From Patescibacteria group bacterium (GTDB lineage Bacteria > Patescibacteriota > Patescibacteriia > UBA1558 > GWA2-36-10), in assembly GCA_041665545.1 (NCBI GenBank), contig JBAYIQ010000001.1, forward strand, positions 137,911-201,910: a DNA stretch of 64,000 nt, read 5' to 3'. A program made the translations under genes and the position numbers. Under the pieces are notes generated by a model, which saw nothing but the letters and a program-made list of their open reading frames with translations, was not told the DNA's origin and ran no database searches. This document shows, one piece after another, positions 12,763 through 58,795 of this stretch. The number at the start of each line of letters is the position of its first letter. Position 1 is the first letter of the stretch.

Positions 12763-14079
12763 CTAGGCGGCTTCCGCACCCTCGGCAATGTAGGGTGCGA
12801 TCGACCCGAGCTGTCTGTCCACCAGGACACGCAACTCGCTGCGACCAGCGAAATCGGTCTTAGCCACAGCATCGACGGCCAGTTTGACGGCCGAGCCGAT
12901 ATCGGGATTATTGAGAGCGGTGACCAGAGGCATCAGCTCAGCCAGACGAGCATCGCCCTTGCCCTCGGCAGTGATCACTGCGATCCTCTTGTCGAGGGCG
13001 GTCTTGACGACATCGATACGCTTGGCCGCCAGCTCGTTCAGTCGAGCCTGAACCTCTGGGCTGGGTGTCGGGTCCTCAATCAGAACACTCTTTACCTTAT
13101 AGCCCGAAACGCTTTCCAGCCGGGCAATGGCCTCATCCCAGTTCGCGTCTTCAAAGACGCCGCCGACTTGGATCTTCTCCAGAGTTTGACCCTTAAGGAG
13201 AACCCGAAAGTCAGCACCGAAGATTTCACTCGCATACTTGACCAAGCCGGCATCAGTCCGCACCTCGGGCGGAGCAGACCAATAGGCATTCAGATTCTCC
13301 GGCCCATCAAGAATGGGGATGAACTTAACATTTACATCTCCCCCGACCTCGATATCGGGTTCACCATCAAGACCTGGGATCTTGCCACCAAGAGTAGGTA
13401 TTTTCTCAGTGACACAAGAGAGTTGTAAACCACGTCTTTCCAGGACGACATTGAATTCGAGACCTGGGGCATTCCTAGGAATCTTCGTCCGGTGGAAACC
13501 GTTGTAGAAGACATACTTGTCGAACATCCACCAGGCGTGAAAGCAACGGCGTCCGAACAGTTTCGGCGTCCATAGTTCCTGCTCCGGAACCTGAATGTTC
13601 ATGATGGCCATCGTAGATCCCGTGGCCAACGACCAAAAAATCACGGTCACCATGTGACCAAATGTCAGGATACCCAAGGTCAGGCACACGCCAGTCACAA
13701 TTGTCGAATAGAATGCCCAGGTGTCTCGCTTGTTGCCAAGCCACGGCCGCGGTTTGTAGGTGTAGTAGGCCTGTAGCGCCGTAATAGCCGCAACGAGCAG
13801 TGCCAACACCACACGAAACCACGGGAAATTGTGGGAGACCTCCTTACCAGCTGTCTTTCCAACTGTCACAGCTGTCTTTACGTCCTCAACTACAGCCGAC
13901 GGCGCAAAAAACAGCCAGTGATGGTTCCAGGAAGCGGCCAGCACTCCCACAGCCAGCAAGGCCGTGGTAATGATCGCTCTCCACCCCACCTTCAGCTTTG
14001 TGCTGTTATTGACCAGCGCGGCAACAACGGACACGATGATCGCAATCACCGCATCAAGGACGAACTTGTTCTGAAACAT
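12763..14079 (-). CDS. high-GC membrane protein with C-terminal SPFH (band-7/prohibitin)-like domain (438 aa)
   Basis: AAAGGAGGGG RBS 2 nt before ATG; 4-5 N-terminal TMs; SPFH-like core (FGRR...PGLEFNVV...) and Ala/Glu-rich tail (AVITAEGKGDARLAEL); G+C-rich vs flanks. Confidence 0.75.
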   Translation of the reverse strand: MFQNKFVLDAVIAIIVSVVAALVNNSTKLKVGWRAIITTALLAVGVLAASWNHHWLFFAPSAVVEDVKTAVTVGKTAGKEVSHNFPWFRVVLALLVAAITALQAYYTYKPRPWLGNKRDTWAFYSTIVTGVCLTLGILTFGHMVTVIFWSLATGSTMAIMNIQVPEQELWTPKLFGRRCFHAWWMFDKYVFYNGFHRTKIPRNAPGLEFNVVLERRGLQLSCVTEKIPTLGGKIPGLDGEPDIEVGGDVNVKFIPILDGPENLNAYWSAPPEVRTDAGLVKYASEIFGADFRVLLKGQTLEKIQVGGVFEDANWDEAIARLESVSGYKVKSVLIEDPTPSPEVQARLNELAAKRIDVVKTALDKRIAVITAEGKGDARLAELMPLVTALNNPDIGSAVKLAVDAVAKTDFAGRSELRVLVDRQLGSIAPYIAEGAEAA

Positions 14080-28170: not shown

Positions 28171-28192
28171 AAATTTATAACTTTAATTATAA

Positions 28193-28271
28193 GGTTTATC
28201 GCCCAGAGGGCGACCCCGTCCCGCAACGCGAGATGGCGACACCACTGCTCTACCAATTGAGCCCGCCCGGC
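28193..28271 (-). pseudogene. tRNA-Thr-like 5' fragment with GC-rich hairpin inserted in the anticodon loop
   Basis: GCCGGGCGGGCTCAATTGGTAGAGCAGTGGTGTCG + 38-nt insert (contains TCGCCCTCTGGGCGA hairpin) + TAAACC; no T arm; 22 nt upstream of intact tRNA-Thr. Confidence 0.6.
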
Positions 28272-28322
28272 ACGCCGATGGCGTAGCCATGGCGGAAGGG
28301 CTATCTCGGCCCAAGGCCGTCT

Positions 28323-34946: not shown

Positions 34947-34994
34947 AATTAAATATTATTTTACCATATTTTGGCCTTAAAGAAAAATTTGACA

Positions 34995-35368
34995 AAAAGA
35001 AAACAGGGAGGACTTTGCCTGATGGCGCGATCCTCCCTGTGCGTGGTACAAGCGGCCATTCGGCCGCGCGGCGTTCGGGCTTGGCCAAACATCCAGACTG
35101 CACCTGTCCAGACCCACTTGTAGACAACGGCGAATTCCGCTGTAGACGAATGGTCGTTGACCTTAGGGCTCCTAGCCGCAATACCCGATATCGGTGGGCT
35201 CCGCTGGCTCGGTATCAGCCAGAACAACGACTATGGCGTTGTTATGAGAAATATGTGGAGGCCCAAGCGCTTGGTATTTGGCCAGCTGACCAGCCGAACC
35301 CGCCAAGGGAAGAGCCGAACAGCGGTCTAGCCGTGGCTTTGGGCCCCCTTGAAAAAAGAGCGTACTAA
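34995..35368 (-). ncRNA. GC-rich structured RNA of unknown class (about 375 nt)
   Basis: Own promoter (35375-35403) and terminator CAGGGAGGA...UCCUCCCUG+U-run (35004-35039); many local hairpins; no ORF with RBS. Confidence 0.6.
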
Positions 35369-35374
35369 GGGGAA

Positions 35375-35403
35375 ATAGTAGCATAATATCTAATTTGTGT
35401 CAA
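35375..35403 (-). promoter_or_regulatory. promoter TTGACA-N17-TACTAT (TGc extended -10) of the 35-kb RNA
   Basis: tgtcaa 35398-35403, atagta 35375-35380 on plus strand. Confidence 0.55.
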
Positions 35404-35457
35404 TAACAACAAAAAACTGCCAAAATTAGCAGTTTTTTAGATGACAACCAATATTTA

Positions 35458-36939: not shown

Positions 36940-37266
36940 TTATTCACTGCTTATTTGGCAAACCGTATCCACGCATTTTATCTGATCCTTATTTATTTGT
37001 GGACAAGGACCACAGACACTGCTTGGGGGATTTTTAAACGGACAATAGGGTTGCCAACGAACATTAGCCACAACACCGCAGGCACAAAGAGTACAATCCG
37101 ACGCCACTAGATGACACTCAGTATCAGCGGTACAAGTTACTCTTGGCTTATTATTTATTAGATTATTAAGATACTGATTATAAGTATGAAAACTGCCCTG
37201 ATTATTCAAATAAATAAAGCCATAAATCAGACCAGCCAATACTAAAATAAATAATATTAATTTCAT
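36940..37266 (-). CDS. small secreted Cys-rich protein (108 aa)
   Basis: N-terminal TM/signal, 11 Cys in mature part. Confidence 0.55.
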   Translation of the reverse strand: MKLILFILVLAGLIYGFIYLNNQGSFHTYNQYLNNLINNKPRVTCTADTECHLVASDCTLCACGVVANVRWQPYCPFKNPPSSVCGPCPQINKDQIKCVDTVCQISSE

Positions 37267-37308: not shown

Positions 37309-37480
37309 AAAAAAACTGACCCTAGTCTGTCATTCCCGCGCCCCTCGGTCTTGAGCTCGGGGTCGAGAGAAAGGCGGGAATCTACCATGGTTATGCCTTA
37401 GGGCAAATCAATGGTAGATCCCGGATCACCTGTCCGCCTCTGGCGGAAGTCCGGGATGACAGTGTGAGGTCAGTTTTTTA
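37309..37480. other. cloverleaf-shaped GC-rich structured element (possible ncRNA and compound terminator)
   Basis: A-run, CTGACC/GGTCAG and CTGTCAT/ATGACAG outer stems enclosing three hairpins (TCCCGC/GCGGGA, ATCTACCAT/ATGGTAGAT, CCCGGA/TCCGGG), T-run. Confidence 0.6.
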
Positions 37481-37500
37481 TAATTACTTTTAAAAAAATA

Positions 37501-38118
37501 TTATTTTTTCTTGGCTGTTTTCTTTTTGACAACTTTGGCCTTAGCTTTTTCTTTAACAGCTACTTTAGCTGCGACTTTGCTTTCAATTTTTGGTTTGACT
37601 GCTTTTTCTACAACAGCGTTAGGAGTCAATATTTTGATCAATTGATCCATCTTGGTGTTTAACAGCTTAATCTGTTGCATGACTTCTCCTGAATCTTTCG
37701 TATCATTCCCACCTTTACCAAAACAATTATCGCAAAAAATTGGCTTACCAGCAGTCGGCCTAAATGGCACCTGACAATCTTTGCCGCATTTAGCGCAAAC
37801 AGCGTTATGCATTTGTTTATCTTCAAAGTTAAAACGATCACGTCTGTCGCCACCAAAATTACTTGGTCCTTGCTTGGAAGAACCACCATTTTTCTTTTCA
37901 AAACATTTACTGCAAAAAATTGGTCTGTCGCCACTTGGTCTAAAAGGAATTTCGCAAGCTTGACCACATTCACTGCAAGTTGCTTGATGCATGGCTGGTC
38001 TGGCGCCATCTCGGCCACCTGACCTGCGATTTCCACCAAATGATTTATTGCGGTCAAATCCACGACTAAAACTGCCACTGGAGGGCCTTCTATTATTGTC
38101 TCTATCAAAATTTCCCAT
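37501..38118 (-). CDS. RG-rich protein with two CxxC...CxxC zinc ribbons and Lys-rich tail
   Basis: CSECGQACEIPFRPSGDRPIFCSKC and CAKCGKDCQVPFRPTAGKPIFCDNC repeats; KAKAKVVKKKTAKKK tail. Confidence 0.65.
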   Translation of the reverse strand: MGNFDRDNNRRPSSGSFSRGFDRNKSFGGNRRSGGRDGARPAMHQATCSECGQACEIPFRPSGDRPIFCSKCFEKKNGGSSKQGPSNFGGDRRDRFNFEDKQMHNAVCAKCGKDCQVPFRPTAGKPIFCDNCFGKGGNDTKDSGEVMQQIKLLNTKMDQLIKILTPNAVVEKAVKPKIESKVAAKVAVKEKAKAKVVKKKTAKKK

Positions 38119-51332: not shown

Positions 51333-51382
51333 TGGCAAAACAAAAAAACAACCCAGTGGGTTGATTATTAATAATGCATGCT

Positions 51383-51507
51383 CTCGTGTCCCTCGACTCA
51401 CTCCGTTCGCTCGGGACACTCGATTCGCAGGAATGAGAATGGTCGGAGGTGCGATAAAGCACCGTAGACCACGAGTGAGTCTTTTGCAAAGCAAAAGGCG
51501 AATCGAG
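51383..51507 (-). repeat. tRNA-trailer structured element, copy E3 (fused to CCA of tRNA-Lys)
   Basis: 125 nt; near-identical to E1 over the tRNA-proximal ~70 nt; followed by AACCCACUGGGUU+U7 terminator (51347-51372). Confidence 0.7.
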
Positions 51508-51584
51508 TGGTGCGCCCAGTAGGATTCGAACCTACGACCGTTTGCTTAAAAGGCAACTGCTCTACCAGGCTGAGCTATAGGCGC
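51508..51584 (-). tRNA. tRNA-Lys (anticodon TTT), CCA encoded
   Basis: GCGCCTA/TGGGCGC acceptor, loop CTTTTAA, T arm GTAGGTTCGAATCCTAC. Confidence 0.9.
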
Positions 51585-55882: not shown

Positions 55883-55958
55883 ATAAAATCGTGGTTAATT
55901 TCTACCACGTGCACCTTAGCAAGACACAAGGTAAATATGGCCAATGGAGGTCCTTGAA

Positions 55959-56693
55959 ATGGAAAAGACCGAAAAGACCGCCTTTGCTGTTCTGCACATG
56001 AGCCGTCACGAATCCAGCTCGCCCCAAGCCAACTATGGCCTGGGAACACTGGGTCCCATGGACTACCGCGGAATCCCGGTTCGCTACCACCCCAATTCCT
56101 TCATGCGTGACTCCGGTTACCGCATGCTGGAAATCCAGCTCCCGAAGAACCAGAACGAAGCGGGAGTCGCGATGGCTGTCATGCACGCAGGTCAGATTCG
56201 GGGAGCCATCAGTTCCCTGCAGGATCAGCTCAACAGTCTGACACCGGAAAAGATCTCCCACTACAACCTGATGATCAACGAACTGCTTCGCAAGGGCTAC
56301 CTGATGCACAGCCAAGTCCTCTACTTCAAACCCTGGCAATCCGGTCTCGTGGCCAAGTACGGCTGGGGCATCAATGGCTCTGGTGGCATGGTCATGTTCG
56401 GACAGAACAACTTCGGACAGAGCTTCGGAGTACAGGCCGGACACCAGCTGGTGCAGGTGGTCTTCCGACCCACTCCGTACGCCGACGGACTGATCTGTCG
56501 CTACGGCTGGGGCATCACCGTATGCCAGCCGGAAAGCATCAAACGTGTGCTGAGTGGTCTGCGCAAGCAGCTCGACAACGCCGTGTTCTTCCAGGAGCAC
56601 GGCTGTCTACTCGAAGACTTCGATCGGCCGAGTCTGGCATGCCGACTGATCGCCCGTCAGGCGACCCACGCGTGCCAGCAAACCACCGCATAG
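55959..56693 (+). CDS. high-GC hypothetical protein (244 aa) with duplicated YGWGI motif
   Basis: GGAGG 8 nt before ATG 55959 (tracked ORF starts 55944); VAKYGWGINGSGG and ICRYGWGITVCQ; no family recognised. Confidence 0.65.
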   Translation: MEKTEKTAFAVLHMSRHESSSPQANYGLGTLGPMDYRGIPVRYHPNSFMRDSGYRMLEIQLPKNQNEAGVAMAVMHAGQIRGAISSLQDQLNSLTPEKISHYNLMINELLRKGYLMHSQVLYFKPWQSGLVAKYGWGINGSGGMVMFGQNNFGQSFGVQAGHQLVQVVFRPTPYADGLICRYGWGITVCQPESIKRVLSGLRKQLDNAVFFQEHGCLLEDFDRPSLACRLIARQATHACQQTTA

Positions 56694-56721
56694 CGAGCAA
56701 CTGCTTGCTACGGTGACAACG

Positions 56722-56768
56722 ACAGGACATTTTCTGACGCCAAGCGTCTGAAGGTGTCCTGTTTTCTT
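56722..56768 (+). terminator. terminator of cassette 5
   Basis: ACAGGACA ... TGTCCTGT stem then TTTTCTT. Confidence 0.7.
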
Positions 56769-56771
56769 ATA

Positions 56772-56800
56772 TTGACAATAGCTATATTATATGCTATAAT
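56772..56800 (+). promoter_or_regulatory. promoter of cassette 6 (TTGACA-N17-TATAAT, TGc extended -10)
   Basis: TTGACA 56772-56777, TATAAT 56795-56800. Confidence 0.6.
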
Positions 56801-56858
56801 ATTAAATGTACCCCAGGATTCTAGTCTCGGGTTGTTCATTTCCAAGGAGGGATTTCTC

Positions 56859-57257
56859 ATGAGTCCGAAACAGCTTGCTGCCATCCCGTTCTGCATTTTG
56901 ACCGTAGTTGCCATGTTCTTATGGGTTGCCGGTCGTCCCACTGGCAAGCCCGACACAACGCGACTCTTCTCAATTGGGACTGATGCCCATCAGGTTCCGT
57001 GTGGTGACATCGGCTACGATGCCACCTTCCGCTACTATGCCGGAAACGACACGGCGGGCGTGACGGTAGCCAATCTCAATCCCGGGCTCGTAACGATCCA
57101 TCTCATGGATCGCCTGAGCAGGGATATCTACGGACGCAAACCCGTGCGGATCAACGGTGATCAGGCCAACCTGGAGATCATCAACAACGCCACCAATGAG
57201 GTGATTTGCCGCTGGCAGATCACCATCGATCGTCAGGTCGGTGTTGCCACCCGCTGA
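56859..57257 (+). CDS. high-GC small membrane-anchored/secreted protein (132 aa)
   Basis: CAAGGAGGGA RBS 7 nt before ATG 56859; N-terminal hydrophobic helix AAIPFCILTVVAMFLWVAG. Confidence 0.65.
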   Translation: MSPKQLAAIPFCILTVVAMFLWVAGRPTGKPDTTRLFSIGTDAHQVPCGDIGYDATFRYYAGNDTAGVTVANLNPGLVTIHLMDRLSRDIYGRKPVRINGDQANLEIINNATNEVICRWQITIDRQVGVATR

Positions 57258-57990: not shown

Positions 57991-58087
57991 GGAATTTATT
58001 TCTTTTCTTATTATATAAAAACTGGCCGTCGCACCTGCCTGTCTGCCGATAGGCGGGCACTTGACCCAATAGCATATATTTACTATC

Positions 58088-58139
58088 GAATGGTCGTAGA
58101 CCACGAGTGAGTCTTTTGCGAAGCAAAAGGCGAATCGAG
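58088..58139 (-). repeat. truncated tRNA-trailer element, copy E4
   Basis: GAATGGTCGTAGACCACGAGTGAGTCTTTTGCGAAGCAAAAGGCGAATCGAG = E1/E3 proximal module with its internal hairpin deleted. Confidence 0.65.
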
Positions 58140-58211
58140 TGGTGGGCATAAGAGGACTTCCGCCTCCGCCCCTCACTTTGTTCGGGGCTATGGCGGACAG
58201 GCGAACCTCTG
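58140..58211 (-). pseudogene. orphan tRNA 3' fragment (T arm + acceptor + CCA) with GC-rich hairpin inserted in the T loop
   Basis: AGAGGTTCG + 42-nt insert (CCTGTCCGCC...GGAGGCGG) + AAGTCCTCT TATGCCCA CCA; no D or anticodon arm upstream. Confidence 0.55.
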
Positions 58212-58224
58212 ATTATTTTAGAAA

Positions 58225-58301
58225 TGGTGGTCGCACCTGGACTCGAACCAGGGACCTTCGCAATGTGAATGCGACGCTCTAACCAACTGAGCCATGCGAC
58301 C
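58225..58301 (-). tRNA. tRNA-Val (anticodon CAC), CCA encoded
   Basis: GGTCGCA/TGCGACC acceptor, loop TTCACAT, T arm CCTGGTTCGAGTCCAGG. Confidence 0.95.
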
Positions 58302-58531
58302 ATATTAATAACCAACTGCTTGTCCGCCAAAGCTCCAAGGGAGCGACGGCGGAAGCTATATGCCCTTAAATAATAAACTACCGAAAATGGCTTAGCCATC
58401 CGTAGCTCCAAATAAAAATAACTATACTTTATACGTTTTGTCATCCTACTCCGCCAGCTGGCGGATATGGATGACATCCTTCGCACCGCGAAGGATGGTA
58501 AAAACCCTTAGCATTCAAAGCTATTTTCTTT

Positions 58532-58606: not shown

Positions 58607-58637
58607 AGAACCAAAAGAAAATAGCTTTTAGAATAAA

Positions 58638-58747
58638 GGTTGCCTGCCCGCCGAAGCTTTGAGCGTAGCGAGGAGCGAAGGCGGGAGAACCTGATGTCCT
58701 AACCGCTCGCCTCGCTTCGCGAGCGAAGCGGGTTAGACGATGGGGCC
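58638..58747 (-). pseudogene. tRNA-Glu-like 5' fragment with GC-rich hairpins in D loop and after the anticodon
   Basis: GGCCCCATCGTCTAAC + 27-nt insert + GGTTAGGACATCAGGTTCTC + 38-nt insert + CAGGCAACC; no T arm; TTGACT-N17-TTTAAT promoter just upstream (about 58760-58790). Confidence 0.6.
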
Positions 58748-58795
58748 AAAACACTGGATATTAAATCAAAAATTTAGCTAAAAGTCAAAGTTATA

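Follow-up and report, generated by a model that had tools for sequence, protein, structure and literature searches.

What is the GC-rich, cloverleaf-shaped element that lies between two genes of a Patescibacteria group bacterium: an RNA gene, a terminator, or a repeat that acts as DNA? The element spans positions 37309-37480 of a 64,000-nt stretch of contig JBAYIQ010000001.1 (‘the window’, by which we mean the whole of the DNA analysed). An earlier note on this DNA had suggested that it might be a heavily expanded tRNA-derived RNA, an independent non-coding RNA (ncRNA), or an elaborate terminator for the adjacent zinc-ribbon gene. In our judgment it is probably a DNA-level repeat and not an RNA gene: two inverted hairpins of the ‘Ssn-related motif’ (SRM) type around a 40-nt core hairpin, arranged like the NIMEs of Neisseria and lodged in the loop of a bidirectional terminator. 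The family itself is already known; what is new is a member in a new phylum, within a terminator loop. With this identification, a supposed new tRNA-like RNA can be struck from the candidates. The family, which work of 2025 connected with a new class of nucleases acting on single-stranded DNA, is also extended into bacteria of the candidate phyla radiation, where its arms are letter-identical to those of Neisseria and Sphingomonads.

The Neisseria Transformation Sequence (NTS), CGTCATTCCCGCGMAVGCGGGAATCYRG, includes the classical dRS3 repeat, and was generalized to the SRM by Chenal et al. (2025; PMC11893778). Small GIY-YIG nucleases (SsnA, cd10448) bind NTS/SRM hairpins and cut beside them, in single-stranded DNA only. 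For Ssn, the sequence upstream of the palindrome is critical, together with the C that follows the palindrome; the identity of the loop is dispensable for SsnA cleavage, and loop extensions are tolerated. Patescibacteria go unmentioned in that paper. NIMEs are dRS3-RS-dRS3 units of Neisseria in which the RS ranges from 19 to 214 bp (Bentley et al. 2007, PMC1797815).

Architecture of the element and identity of its arms

The element is on the scale of 170 nt and is bracketed, as read directly from the sequence, by an A-run and a T-run (Table 1). Inside these, an outer stem and two unpaired linkers surround a second stem, which encloses three hairpins, A, B and C, with no connecting bases. ViennaRNA RNAfold recovers this four-way junction at -87.7 kcal/mol on the plus strand (z = -7.9; none of 200 shuffles as good). 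The minus strand folds nearly as well (-81.4 kcal/mol, z = -7.2), and the centroid structure is better defined on the plus strand. All five helices described in the earlier note are present where it had placed them, and both strands fold far better than shuffled sequence. There is no second copy in the window, where BLAST of the sequence against itself returned only short chance words and a mini-hairpin, discussed later, that the element shares with a tRNA fragment.

Hairpins A and C are the palindromes of two arms that match the SRM pattern, HGTCWYN(0-2)YYVSBRHN(0-5)WNVSBRGN(0-2)RNCYNB (PMC11893778). In the window the match appears only once two inserts, one in the loop of each arm, have been removed; shuffled windows give 0.24 matches. 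For comparison, we used nine syntenic loci of related Patescibacteria, whose spacers were reached via homologues of the zinc-ribbon protein (handles such as L002 denote individual loci). Both arms match as they stand in L002, L003 and L010, and the oriented flanks of the SRM, GTCAT together with …GGGAATC / …CGGGATC, are invariant in all five orthologous copies. Arm A is identical at 26 of 26 positions to NTS/dRS3 repeats of N. gonorrhoeae, which occur at 9-11 places per record, and arm C is identical at 25-26 of 26 to repeats of Sphingobium, Novosphingobium and Croceibacterium (both in PLSDB). The two arms belong to different types, A to the NTS/dRS3 type of Neisseria and C to a type common in Sphingomonads.

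The resemblance extends from the arms to the whole unit. The gonococcal and Sphingobium examples have the same layout of arm, core and inverted arm, the gonococcal one being NTS-core-NTS. Like the NTS/SRM hairpins described by Chenal et al. (PMC11893778), both window arms have a 5' GTCAT, a palindrome of 6-8 bp and a C directly after it, and arm A is essentially the Neisseria NTS; the host, the presence of one pair in 64 kb, the secondary hairpins that interrupt both loops and the lack of a flanking ssnA gene are different. Like a NIME (PMC1797815), the unit consists of two inverted hairpin repeats of 20-30 nt around a core within the size range of the RS, and the uninterrupted arm A contains ATTCCC-N8-GGGAAT (ATTCCCGCGAAAGCGGGAAT in the orthologues). 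It differs from NIMEs in being isolated rather than part of an array, in being located in a terminator loop, and in its arm C (ATCCCGG…CCGGGAT), which is off the dRS3 consensus.

Arm C is widespread. In uninterrupted form it is a 22-mer, which, scanned for together with the unit end as CCCGGATCA-N0-30-AGTCCGGGATGAC, was found at no fewer than 120 metagenome loci; by our own estimate, chance would give about 4. The matches listed come from soils, sediments, sea water and fermenters. Among the listed matches with enough upstream sequence, 90 of 129 (about 70%) have a second, inverted GTCAY-hairpin upstream, separated by a core with a median length of 39 nt. The general layout of these pairs is GTCAT-hairpin-ATCCA-core-TGGAT-hairpin-ATGAC. 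Where both arms of a pair are of one type, the pair folds as a single long hairpin; where the arms differ in type, it folds into a closing stem with three hairpins. Since the arms of the window differ in type (NTS versus CCCGGA), they do not pair with one another, and a four-way ‘cloverleaf’ is to be expected on either strand. What looks like a T-loop in arm C (CCCGG-AUCAAGU-CCGGG) is no more than a common SRM hairpin, CCCGGACTTGATCCGGG, read as its reverse complement. Other scans gave no match or chance matches: a pattern for the core hairpin found none in metagenome contigs, two scans of viral contigs found none, and a shorter core pattern, itself too narrow, gave two chance matches in genome contigs, one in a coding region of Chloroflexota and the other in the stem of a cobalamin riboswitch in a Bacillota genome.

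These matches bear on one alternative, that the unit is a local elaboration of the terminator hairpin by duplication and drift, unrelated to any repeat family. The unit does sit exactly within the frame of A-run, stem and T-run, where relatives have a simple terminator. Against this, drift would have to account for 25-26 nt of arm identity to Neisseria and Sphingomonad repeats, for the unrelated metagenome loci, for changes of orientation among relatives, and for inner hairpins that come from a family present at other sites. We regard local elaboration as extremely unlikely.

Beyond the end of the SRM, some metagenome loci (L017, L020, L029, L054, L096, L108 and L131) have partial repeats in tandem, two or three copies of (T)CCGGGATGAC and a further 10-14 nt, which look like repeated events at the end of the unit.

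Table 1. Positions within the window of the parts of the element and of the features related to it
Feature	Position	Strand	Basis or remark
A-run, left tail of the bidirectional intrinsic terminator	37309-37315		U-run for minus-strand transcripts; read directly
Outer terminator stem, 5' half, CTGACC	37316-37321		CTGAC(C) kept in L002, L009 and L010
Left unpaired linker, CTAGT	37322-37326		Differs among genomes; does not invert with the unit
Second stem, CTGTCAT with ATGACAG	37327-37333 with 37456-37462		Encloses the three hairpins
SRM arm A, NTS/dRS3-like: TGTCAT-TCCCGC-(loop with insert)-GCGGGA-ATCTAC	37328-37385	+	SRM pattern match after removal of the insert
Hairpin A, TCCCGC with GCGGGA	37334-37339 with 37374-37379
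Nested insert 1, 30-nt GC-rich hairpin within the GAAA loop of arm A	37340-37369		Missing in L002, L010 and L011; homologous insert at the same place in L009
Core hairpin B, counterpart of the ‘RS’ spacer between two inverted arms	37380-37419		Read directly and RNAfold
Hairpin B, perfect 9-bp stem, ATCTACCAT with ATGGTAGAT	37380-37388 with 37411-37419
SRM arm C: TGTCAT-CCCGGA-CTT(insert)GA-TCCGGG-ATCTAC, minus-strand reading	37414-37461	-	SRM pattern match after removal of the insert
Hairpin C, CCCGGA with TCCGGG	37420-37425 with 37450-37455
Nested insert 2, 19-nt mini-hairpin CCTGTCCGCC-TCT-GGCGGA in the loop of arm C; boundary ambiguous by 1 nt	37429-37447	+	Missing in 4 of 4 other copies
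Right unit end, ATGACAG, a terminal inverted repeat of 5-7 bp with CTGTCAT	37456-37462		Read and folded
Right unpaired linker, TGTGA	37463-37467		Read directly
Outer terminator stem, 3' half, GGTCAG (37468-37473), then the T-run (37474-37479)	37468-37479		Read and folded
80-aa GIY-YIG nuclease gene, candidate partner of the CCGCC mini-hairpins	19980-20222	-	Pfam PF01541, E = 2.7e-12; 17 kb from the element
Related mini-hairpin in the T-loop of a tRNA 3' fragment (‘stub’)	58159-58201	-	Excision restores a canonical T-arm
Related mini-hairpin (CTTGTCCGCC…GGCGGA) in the D-arm of the matching tRNA 5' fragment	58319-58353	+	Excision restores GGGCATATAGCTCAGTTGGTTA

The orthologous site in related genomes

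The genes on either side of the element are both on the minus strand: a CxxC-x17-CxxC zinc-ribbon gene (37501-38118) and a gene for a 108-aa protein (36940-37266). Protein matches assign the genome to Patescibacteria. The outer 6-bp stem of the element runs into T6 on the plus strand and into T7 on the minus strand, as in intrinsic terminators; the consensus scanner overlooked it because the loop is 146 nt long. In four of the nine related loci (L004, L005, L006 and L145) the same frame of A-run and T-run holds a plain bidirectional terminator alone, AAAAAACCGGCCCAGAGGGACCG(G/A)TTTTTT. In the other five a unit of 83-132 nt sits in the terminator loop, three times in one orientation and twice in the other, and the stem CTGAC(C)/(G)GTCAG surrounds it in the five unit-bearing genomes. 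The terminator suggested earlier is therefore real as regards the outermost stem with its A-run and T-run; the inner unit is better described as a DNA repeat. With the outer stem and the U-runs intact on both strands, the effect of the unit at the RNA level is probably confined to enlarging the terminator loop, and its only role there would be that of a longer terminator hairpin.

The site is thus polymorphic in both presence and orientation. L010 and L011 have the unit in the orientation of the window, with no inner hairpins, and with GAAA or GAAG as the loop of arm A and TCAAG as that of arm C. In L002 and L003, the closest relatives of the window (~91-93% protein identity in the flanking zinc-ribbon gene), the unit is inverted and uninterrupted, and in L009 it is inverted, and loop A holds a 30-nt insert homologous to that of the window. 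Insert 1 is lacking in L002, L010 and L011, and insert 2 in all four other copies; the two inner hairpins of the window are therefore secondary insertions. No two genomes share the linkers beyond the terminal repeat of 5-7 bp, and the linkers do not flip with the unit. In a neighbour-joining tree built from the zinc-ribbon protein, loci that lack the unit are interspersed with loci that have it forward, inverted or with an insert, from which it follows that gain or loss, flipping and nested insertion each took place more than once, or, alternatively, that the unit was exchanged between lineages. The locus offers a compact natural series (empty terminator, unit in either orientation, unit with nested hairpins) in which the arrival, flipping and secondary invasion of a repeat can be studied.

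The same copies speak to the question of RNA or DNA. Units are 89-97% identical between genomes, compared with 74-90% nucleotide identity for the flanking gene. Substitutions among the five orthologous copies all fall in core hairpin B, with none in the arms, at the GTCAT ends or at the ATC junctions. Of 32 base pairs, 27 are invariant and none has changed on both sides. Constraint here acts on the sequence, not on the pairing, as expected for a DNA site recognized by a protein, or for a repeat homogenized by exchange. The element shows neither the compensatory changes nor the fixed transcribed strand of a structured ncRNA.

A rival reading is a structured ncRNA transcribed from the plus strand, perhaps a greatly expanded tRNA-like one, and several features are in keeping with it: the very stable four-way junction, the better-defined centroid on the plus strand, the T-arm-like arm C, and a unit more conserved than the flanking gene. 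The likeness to a tRNA lies in the closing stem of 7 bp, in the number of arms (three), and in the third of these, which has a 5-bp stem and a UCAAGU-like loop. It stops there. The element has no anticodon loop, no CCA end, no spacers at tRNA positions 8-9 and 26, and none of the conserved bases of the D- and T-loops, and it fails the tRNA models: ARAGORN and Rfam RF00005 are silent at the element, while they do pick up six ordinary tRNAs elsewhere in the window. Rfam reports no family at the gathering threshold over the whole window, and none at E values up to 10 for the element or for the uninterrupted copy in L010. Covariation among relatives, which the earlier note had proposed as a check along with an Rfam search, amounts to zero compensatory pairs in homologous copies at orthologous sites. 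Close relatives carry the unit in opposite orientations with respect to transcription, which rules out a sequence-specific RNA expressed from a fixed promoter; the two strands fold about as well as each other; the unit is missing altogether from the four loci with a plain terminator; and its arms are generic DNA repeats found across phyla. An RNA gene, tRNA-derived or independent, is thus very unlikely. SRP, 6S, RNase P, tmRNA and retron RNAs were considered and dropped, there being no model match and no reverse transcriptase nearby.

Opposite orientations at one site raise another alternative, a programmed invertible switch, in which a site-specific recombinase would flip the unit at its terminal inverted repeats and so alter terminator strength or an outward promoter. 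Both orientations do occur, even between the window and its closest relative, and the linkers outside the inverted repeat stay in place. In addition, ATGACA at the end of the unit stands 17 nt ahead of TATAAT, and the two boxes together match the promoter consensus at 11 of 12 positions. The terminal repeats are symmetrical, however, so that the ATGACA end and the closing stem are identical in either orientation; the repeat is only 5-7 bp long; no recombinase gene is present among the neighbours examined; and the two orientations were seen between genomes, not within one population. A switch of this kind is, we think, quite unlikely. The promoter-like match, at 37456-37484 on the plus strand, takes its -35 box from the SRM unit end and is oriented antisense to the zinc-ribbon gene, into its 3' end; L002, L009, L010 and L011 show an equal arrangement of ATGACA, 17 nt and TATAnn.

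REP/BIME elements, with their RAYT transposases, and MITEs such as Correia and ERIC are short, palindromic and intergenic, are often found beside terminators in either orientation, and can have internal insertions. The window element has these traits in common with them, and it could be an active non-autonomous transposon (MITE), mobilized by a transposase encoded elsewhere, that has struck this terminator loop repeatedly. Terminal inverted repeats, the scatter of presence, absence and orientation on the tree, the greater conservation of the element than of its flanks, and the very wide distribution of the family in metagenomes would all fit. Contrary to expectation for such a transposon, no target-site duplication is visible, the copy is single in 64 kb, all five occurrences are at the same orthologous site, and neither a transposase nor an HUH or RAYT gene was seen among the neighbours examined. 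We consider an active MITE unlikely.

The reading that we prefer, an SRM pair that acts as DNA, would run as follows. The pair came to lie in the terminator loop between the zinc-ribbon gene and the next gene, and later the loop of each arm received a small GC-rich hairpin, precisely inserted. The invariant arms would be recognized as single-stranded DNA hairpins by a small GIY-YIG nuclease of the Ssn type, as for NTS/SRM elsewhere; the arms would affect the recombination or turnover of single-stranded DNA and would encode no product. Flips in orientation might arise by recombination or template switching within the terminal inverted repeat.

Several observations weigh against this account. 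One SRM pair in 64 kb is far from the hundreds found in classic NTS/SRM genomes. The one GIY-YIG gene in the window has no GTCAT-type SRM beside it (CCGCC hairpins are found there instead), and we infer the protein partner rather than observe it. The unit is kept at a single orthologous site, with perfectly conserved arms next to a gene that has diverged by ~25%, which could mean that it has a function specific to this locus. And the argument from the tree for repeated flips depends on one protein of ~200 aa.

Mini-hairpins nested in the arms

The loop-inserted CCGCC mini-hairpins, which are concentrated near tRNA genes and small GIY-YIG genes, are the less explained part of the finding, and the more novel. 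Hairpins of the form CCGCC…GGCGG number 11 in the window, compared with 0.76 expected from local shuffles, and 20 in the 10.2 kb of loci that surround homologues of the 80-aa GIY-YIG gene of the window; there are none in 27.5 kb of zinc-ribbon loci. The earlier note had recognized that an insert, CCTGTCCGCC…GGCGGAAGTCC, is common to the loop of arm C and to an orphan tRNA stub, and this proved correct: 37429-37453 on the plus strand and 58154-58201 on the minus strand share it, with 21 identical flanking bases. The second copy sits in a genuine tRNA T-arm. Excising 43 nt from it gives AGAGG-TTCGAGT-CCTCT, followed by UAUGCCC-A-CCA, and the T-loop so restored is the same as that of the neighbouring tRNA-Val.

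Three copies in the window are flanked C(C/T)TGTCCGCC…GGCGGA, and excising them in silico restores, respectively, the SRM loop TCA^AG, the T-loop TTCG^AGT and the D-arm TAGCT^CAGTTGG. A tRNA-Thr fragment of L134 uses the same site in the D-arm, in the same orientation, and an identical 16-mer, TCCGCCAGAGGCGGAC, occurs in that locus ~40 nt upstream of a GIY-YIG gene. Nested inserts in SRM loops are found, too, at the unrelated metagenome loci L039, L046, L095 and L118. Nested insert 2 belongs to a family of mini-hairpins, CYTGYCCGCC…GGCGGA, whose other members here interrupt tRNA T-loops and D-arms. An intron of the archaeal type in these tRNAs was considered and dropped: the genome is bacterial, its tRNAs encode CCA, and the interrupted genes are truncated fragments.

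The mini-hairpins behave, by analogy, like small mobile palindromes of the kind represented by mitochondrial GC clusters and repetitive hairpin-forming elements (PMC4478555, PMC2800124). The two have in common that they are short and GC-rich, palindromic, scattered in an AT-rich genome and polymorphic for presence and absence, and that they merge or nest. The mitochondrial elements are organellar and have no reported association with GIY-YIG proteins, and the likeness is one of behaviour, not of homology.

CCGCC hairpins stand directly upstream of the GIY-YIG gene in the window and in L132, L134, L136 and L142. This link between the mini-hairpins and GIY-YIG genes is an association. The family might be a new, tiny mobile element of Patescibacteria that inserts into exposed DNA-hairpin loops and is mobilized or maintained by the small GIY-YIG nucleases of tRNA clusters, an idea that we offer tentatively and think more doubtful than not. 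Its targets would be the loops of SRMs, the T-loops, D-arms and anticodon loops of tRNAs, and the loops of other mini-hairpins. The genes of these nucleases lie within tRNA gene clusters, where CCGCC hairpins and a duplicated 5' half of a tRNA come before each of them. The whole might constitute a ‘hairpin-into-loop’ insertion system for single-stranded DNA, related to Ssn/SRM, of which the flips of the SRM pair could be a by-product, through nicking at the two inverted arms. How hairpin repeats spread was left as a question by Chenal et al. (2025; PMC11893778), and if the mini-hairpins are indeed linked to GIY-YIG genes embedded in tRNA clusters, the mechanism would become directly testable. 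The flips in orientation and the loop-targeted mini-hairpins are the parts that merit further attention.

One further hairpin of this family lies outside the loops just described. At L145 (1976-2030), which has no SRM pair, a 37-nt hairpin, CCTGCCCGCC…GGCGGG, stands 5 nt past the stop codon of the zinc-ribbon gene. It comes with a duplicated flank of ~17 nt, and since the duplication covers the stop-codon region, the end of the reading frame is preserved.

GIY-YIG cassettes, tRNA fragments and other GC-rich stretches

The GIY-YIG gene of the window forms part of a cassette embedded at tRNA-Tyr (19880-20320, minus strand). In order, the cassette comprises a tRNA-Tyr 5' half that ends in the anticodon loop (…CAGACUG), a double hairpin (CCACCGCC…GGCGG-GGT-GCCGCC…GGCGGC), AUAAAUCU, the 80-aa GIY-YIG open reading frame (ORF), and a complete tRNA-Tyr. 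The architecture is kept in four other Patescibacteria loci, L132, L134, L136 and L142, and in cassette loci a second GIY-YIG gene, of 81-87 aa, is often found ahead of tRNA-Thr. L132 has tandem partial copies of tRNA-Tyr with hairpin inserts in the anticodon loop and in the T-loop. Among the at least 120 metagenome loci that contain SRMs, the only GIY-YIG ORF among those listed is in L099 (5289-5645); two SRM units lie ~1.4-2 kb away, in keeping with the association of ssnA and SRMs that has been reported. Sequence searches of the PDB with the GIY-YIG protein of the window and with that of L099 returned weak matches to UPF0213 and UvrC only, and no Ssn structure.

Fragments of tRNA genes occur elsewhere on the minus strand. 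At 58140-58365 are the two halves of one tRNA-like gene, a 5' half reading GGGCAUAUAGCU…CAGUUGGUUA and a 3' half reading …AGAGGUUCG…AGUCCUCUUAUGCCCACCA; their acceptor strands are complementary. Both halves carry a mini-hairpin insert, and between them, in place of the missing anticodon arm, lies a complete tRNA-Val(CAC) gene. Truncated tRNA 5' halves also stand just upstream of full tRNA genes at 28190-28320 and 58636-58750, one Thr-like and ending at the anticodon, the other Glu-like with a hairpin in the D-loop, and both have hairpins of the CCGCC type.

Directly after the CCA of tRNA-Thr(GGU), tRNA-Tyr, tRNA-Lys and the tRNA stub comes a GC-rich segment of 75-140 nt (minus strand; 19525-19666, 19745-19880, 51380-51510 and 58060-58142), the copies of which are 84-98% identical. 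It starts CCA followed by CUCGAUUCGCCUUUUGCUUCGCAAAAG… and ends …GUCGAAGGGCACGAGAU; it has no Rfam match, and its fold is modest (z = -2.9).

Three more GC-rich stretches are present in the window. The first, 510 nt at 34947-35457 (0.52-0.60 GC), has no called gene in the public annotation of the contig; its longest ORF is without a Pfam match, it has no Rfam match, and a plain terminator (35411-35438) lies at its end. The other two, 12763-14079 and 55944-57257, have a GC content of 0.51-0.61 compared with ~0.38 around them. They were considered as possible arrays of the element (the islands at 12.8-14.1 kb and 55.9-57.3 kb) and dropped, being coding-like and without similarity to it. Both read as coding, match no Pfam family, and are possibly horizontally acquired genes.

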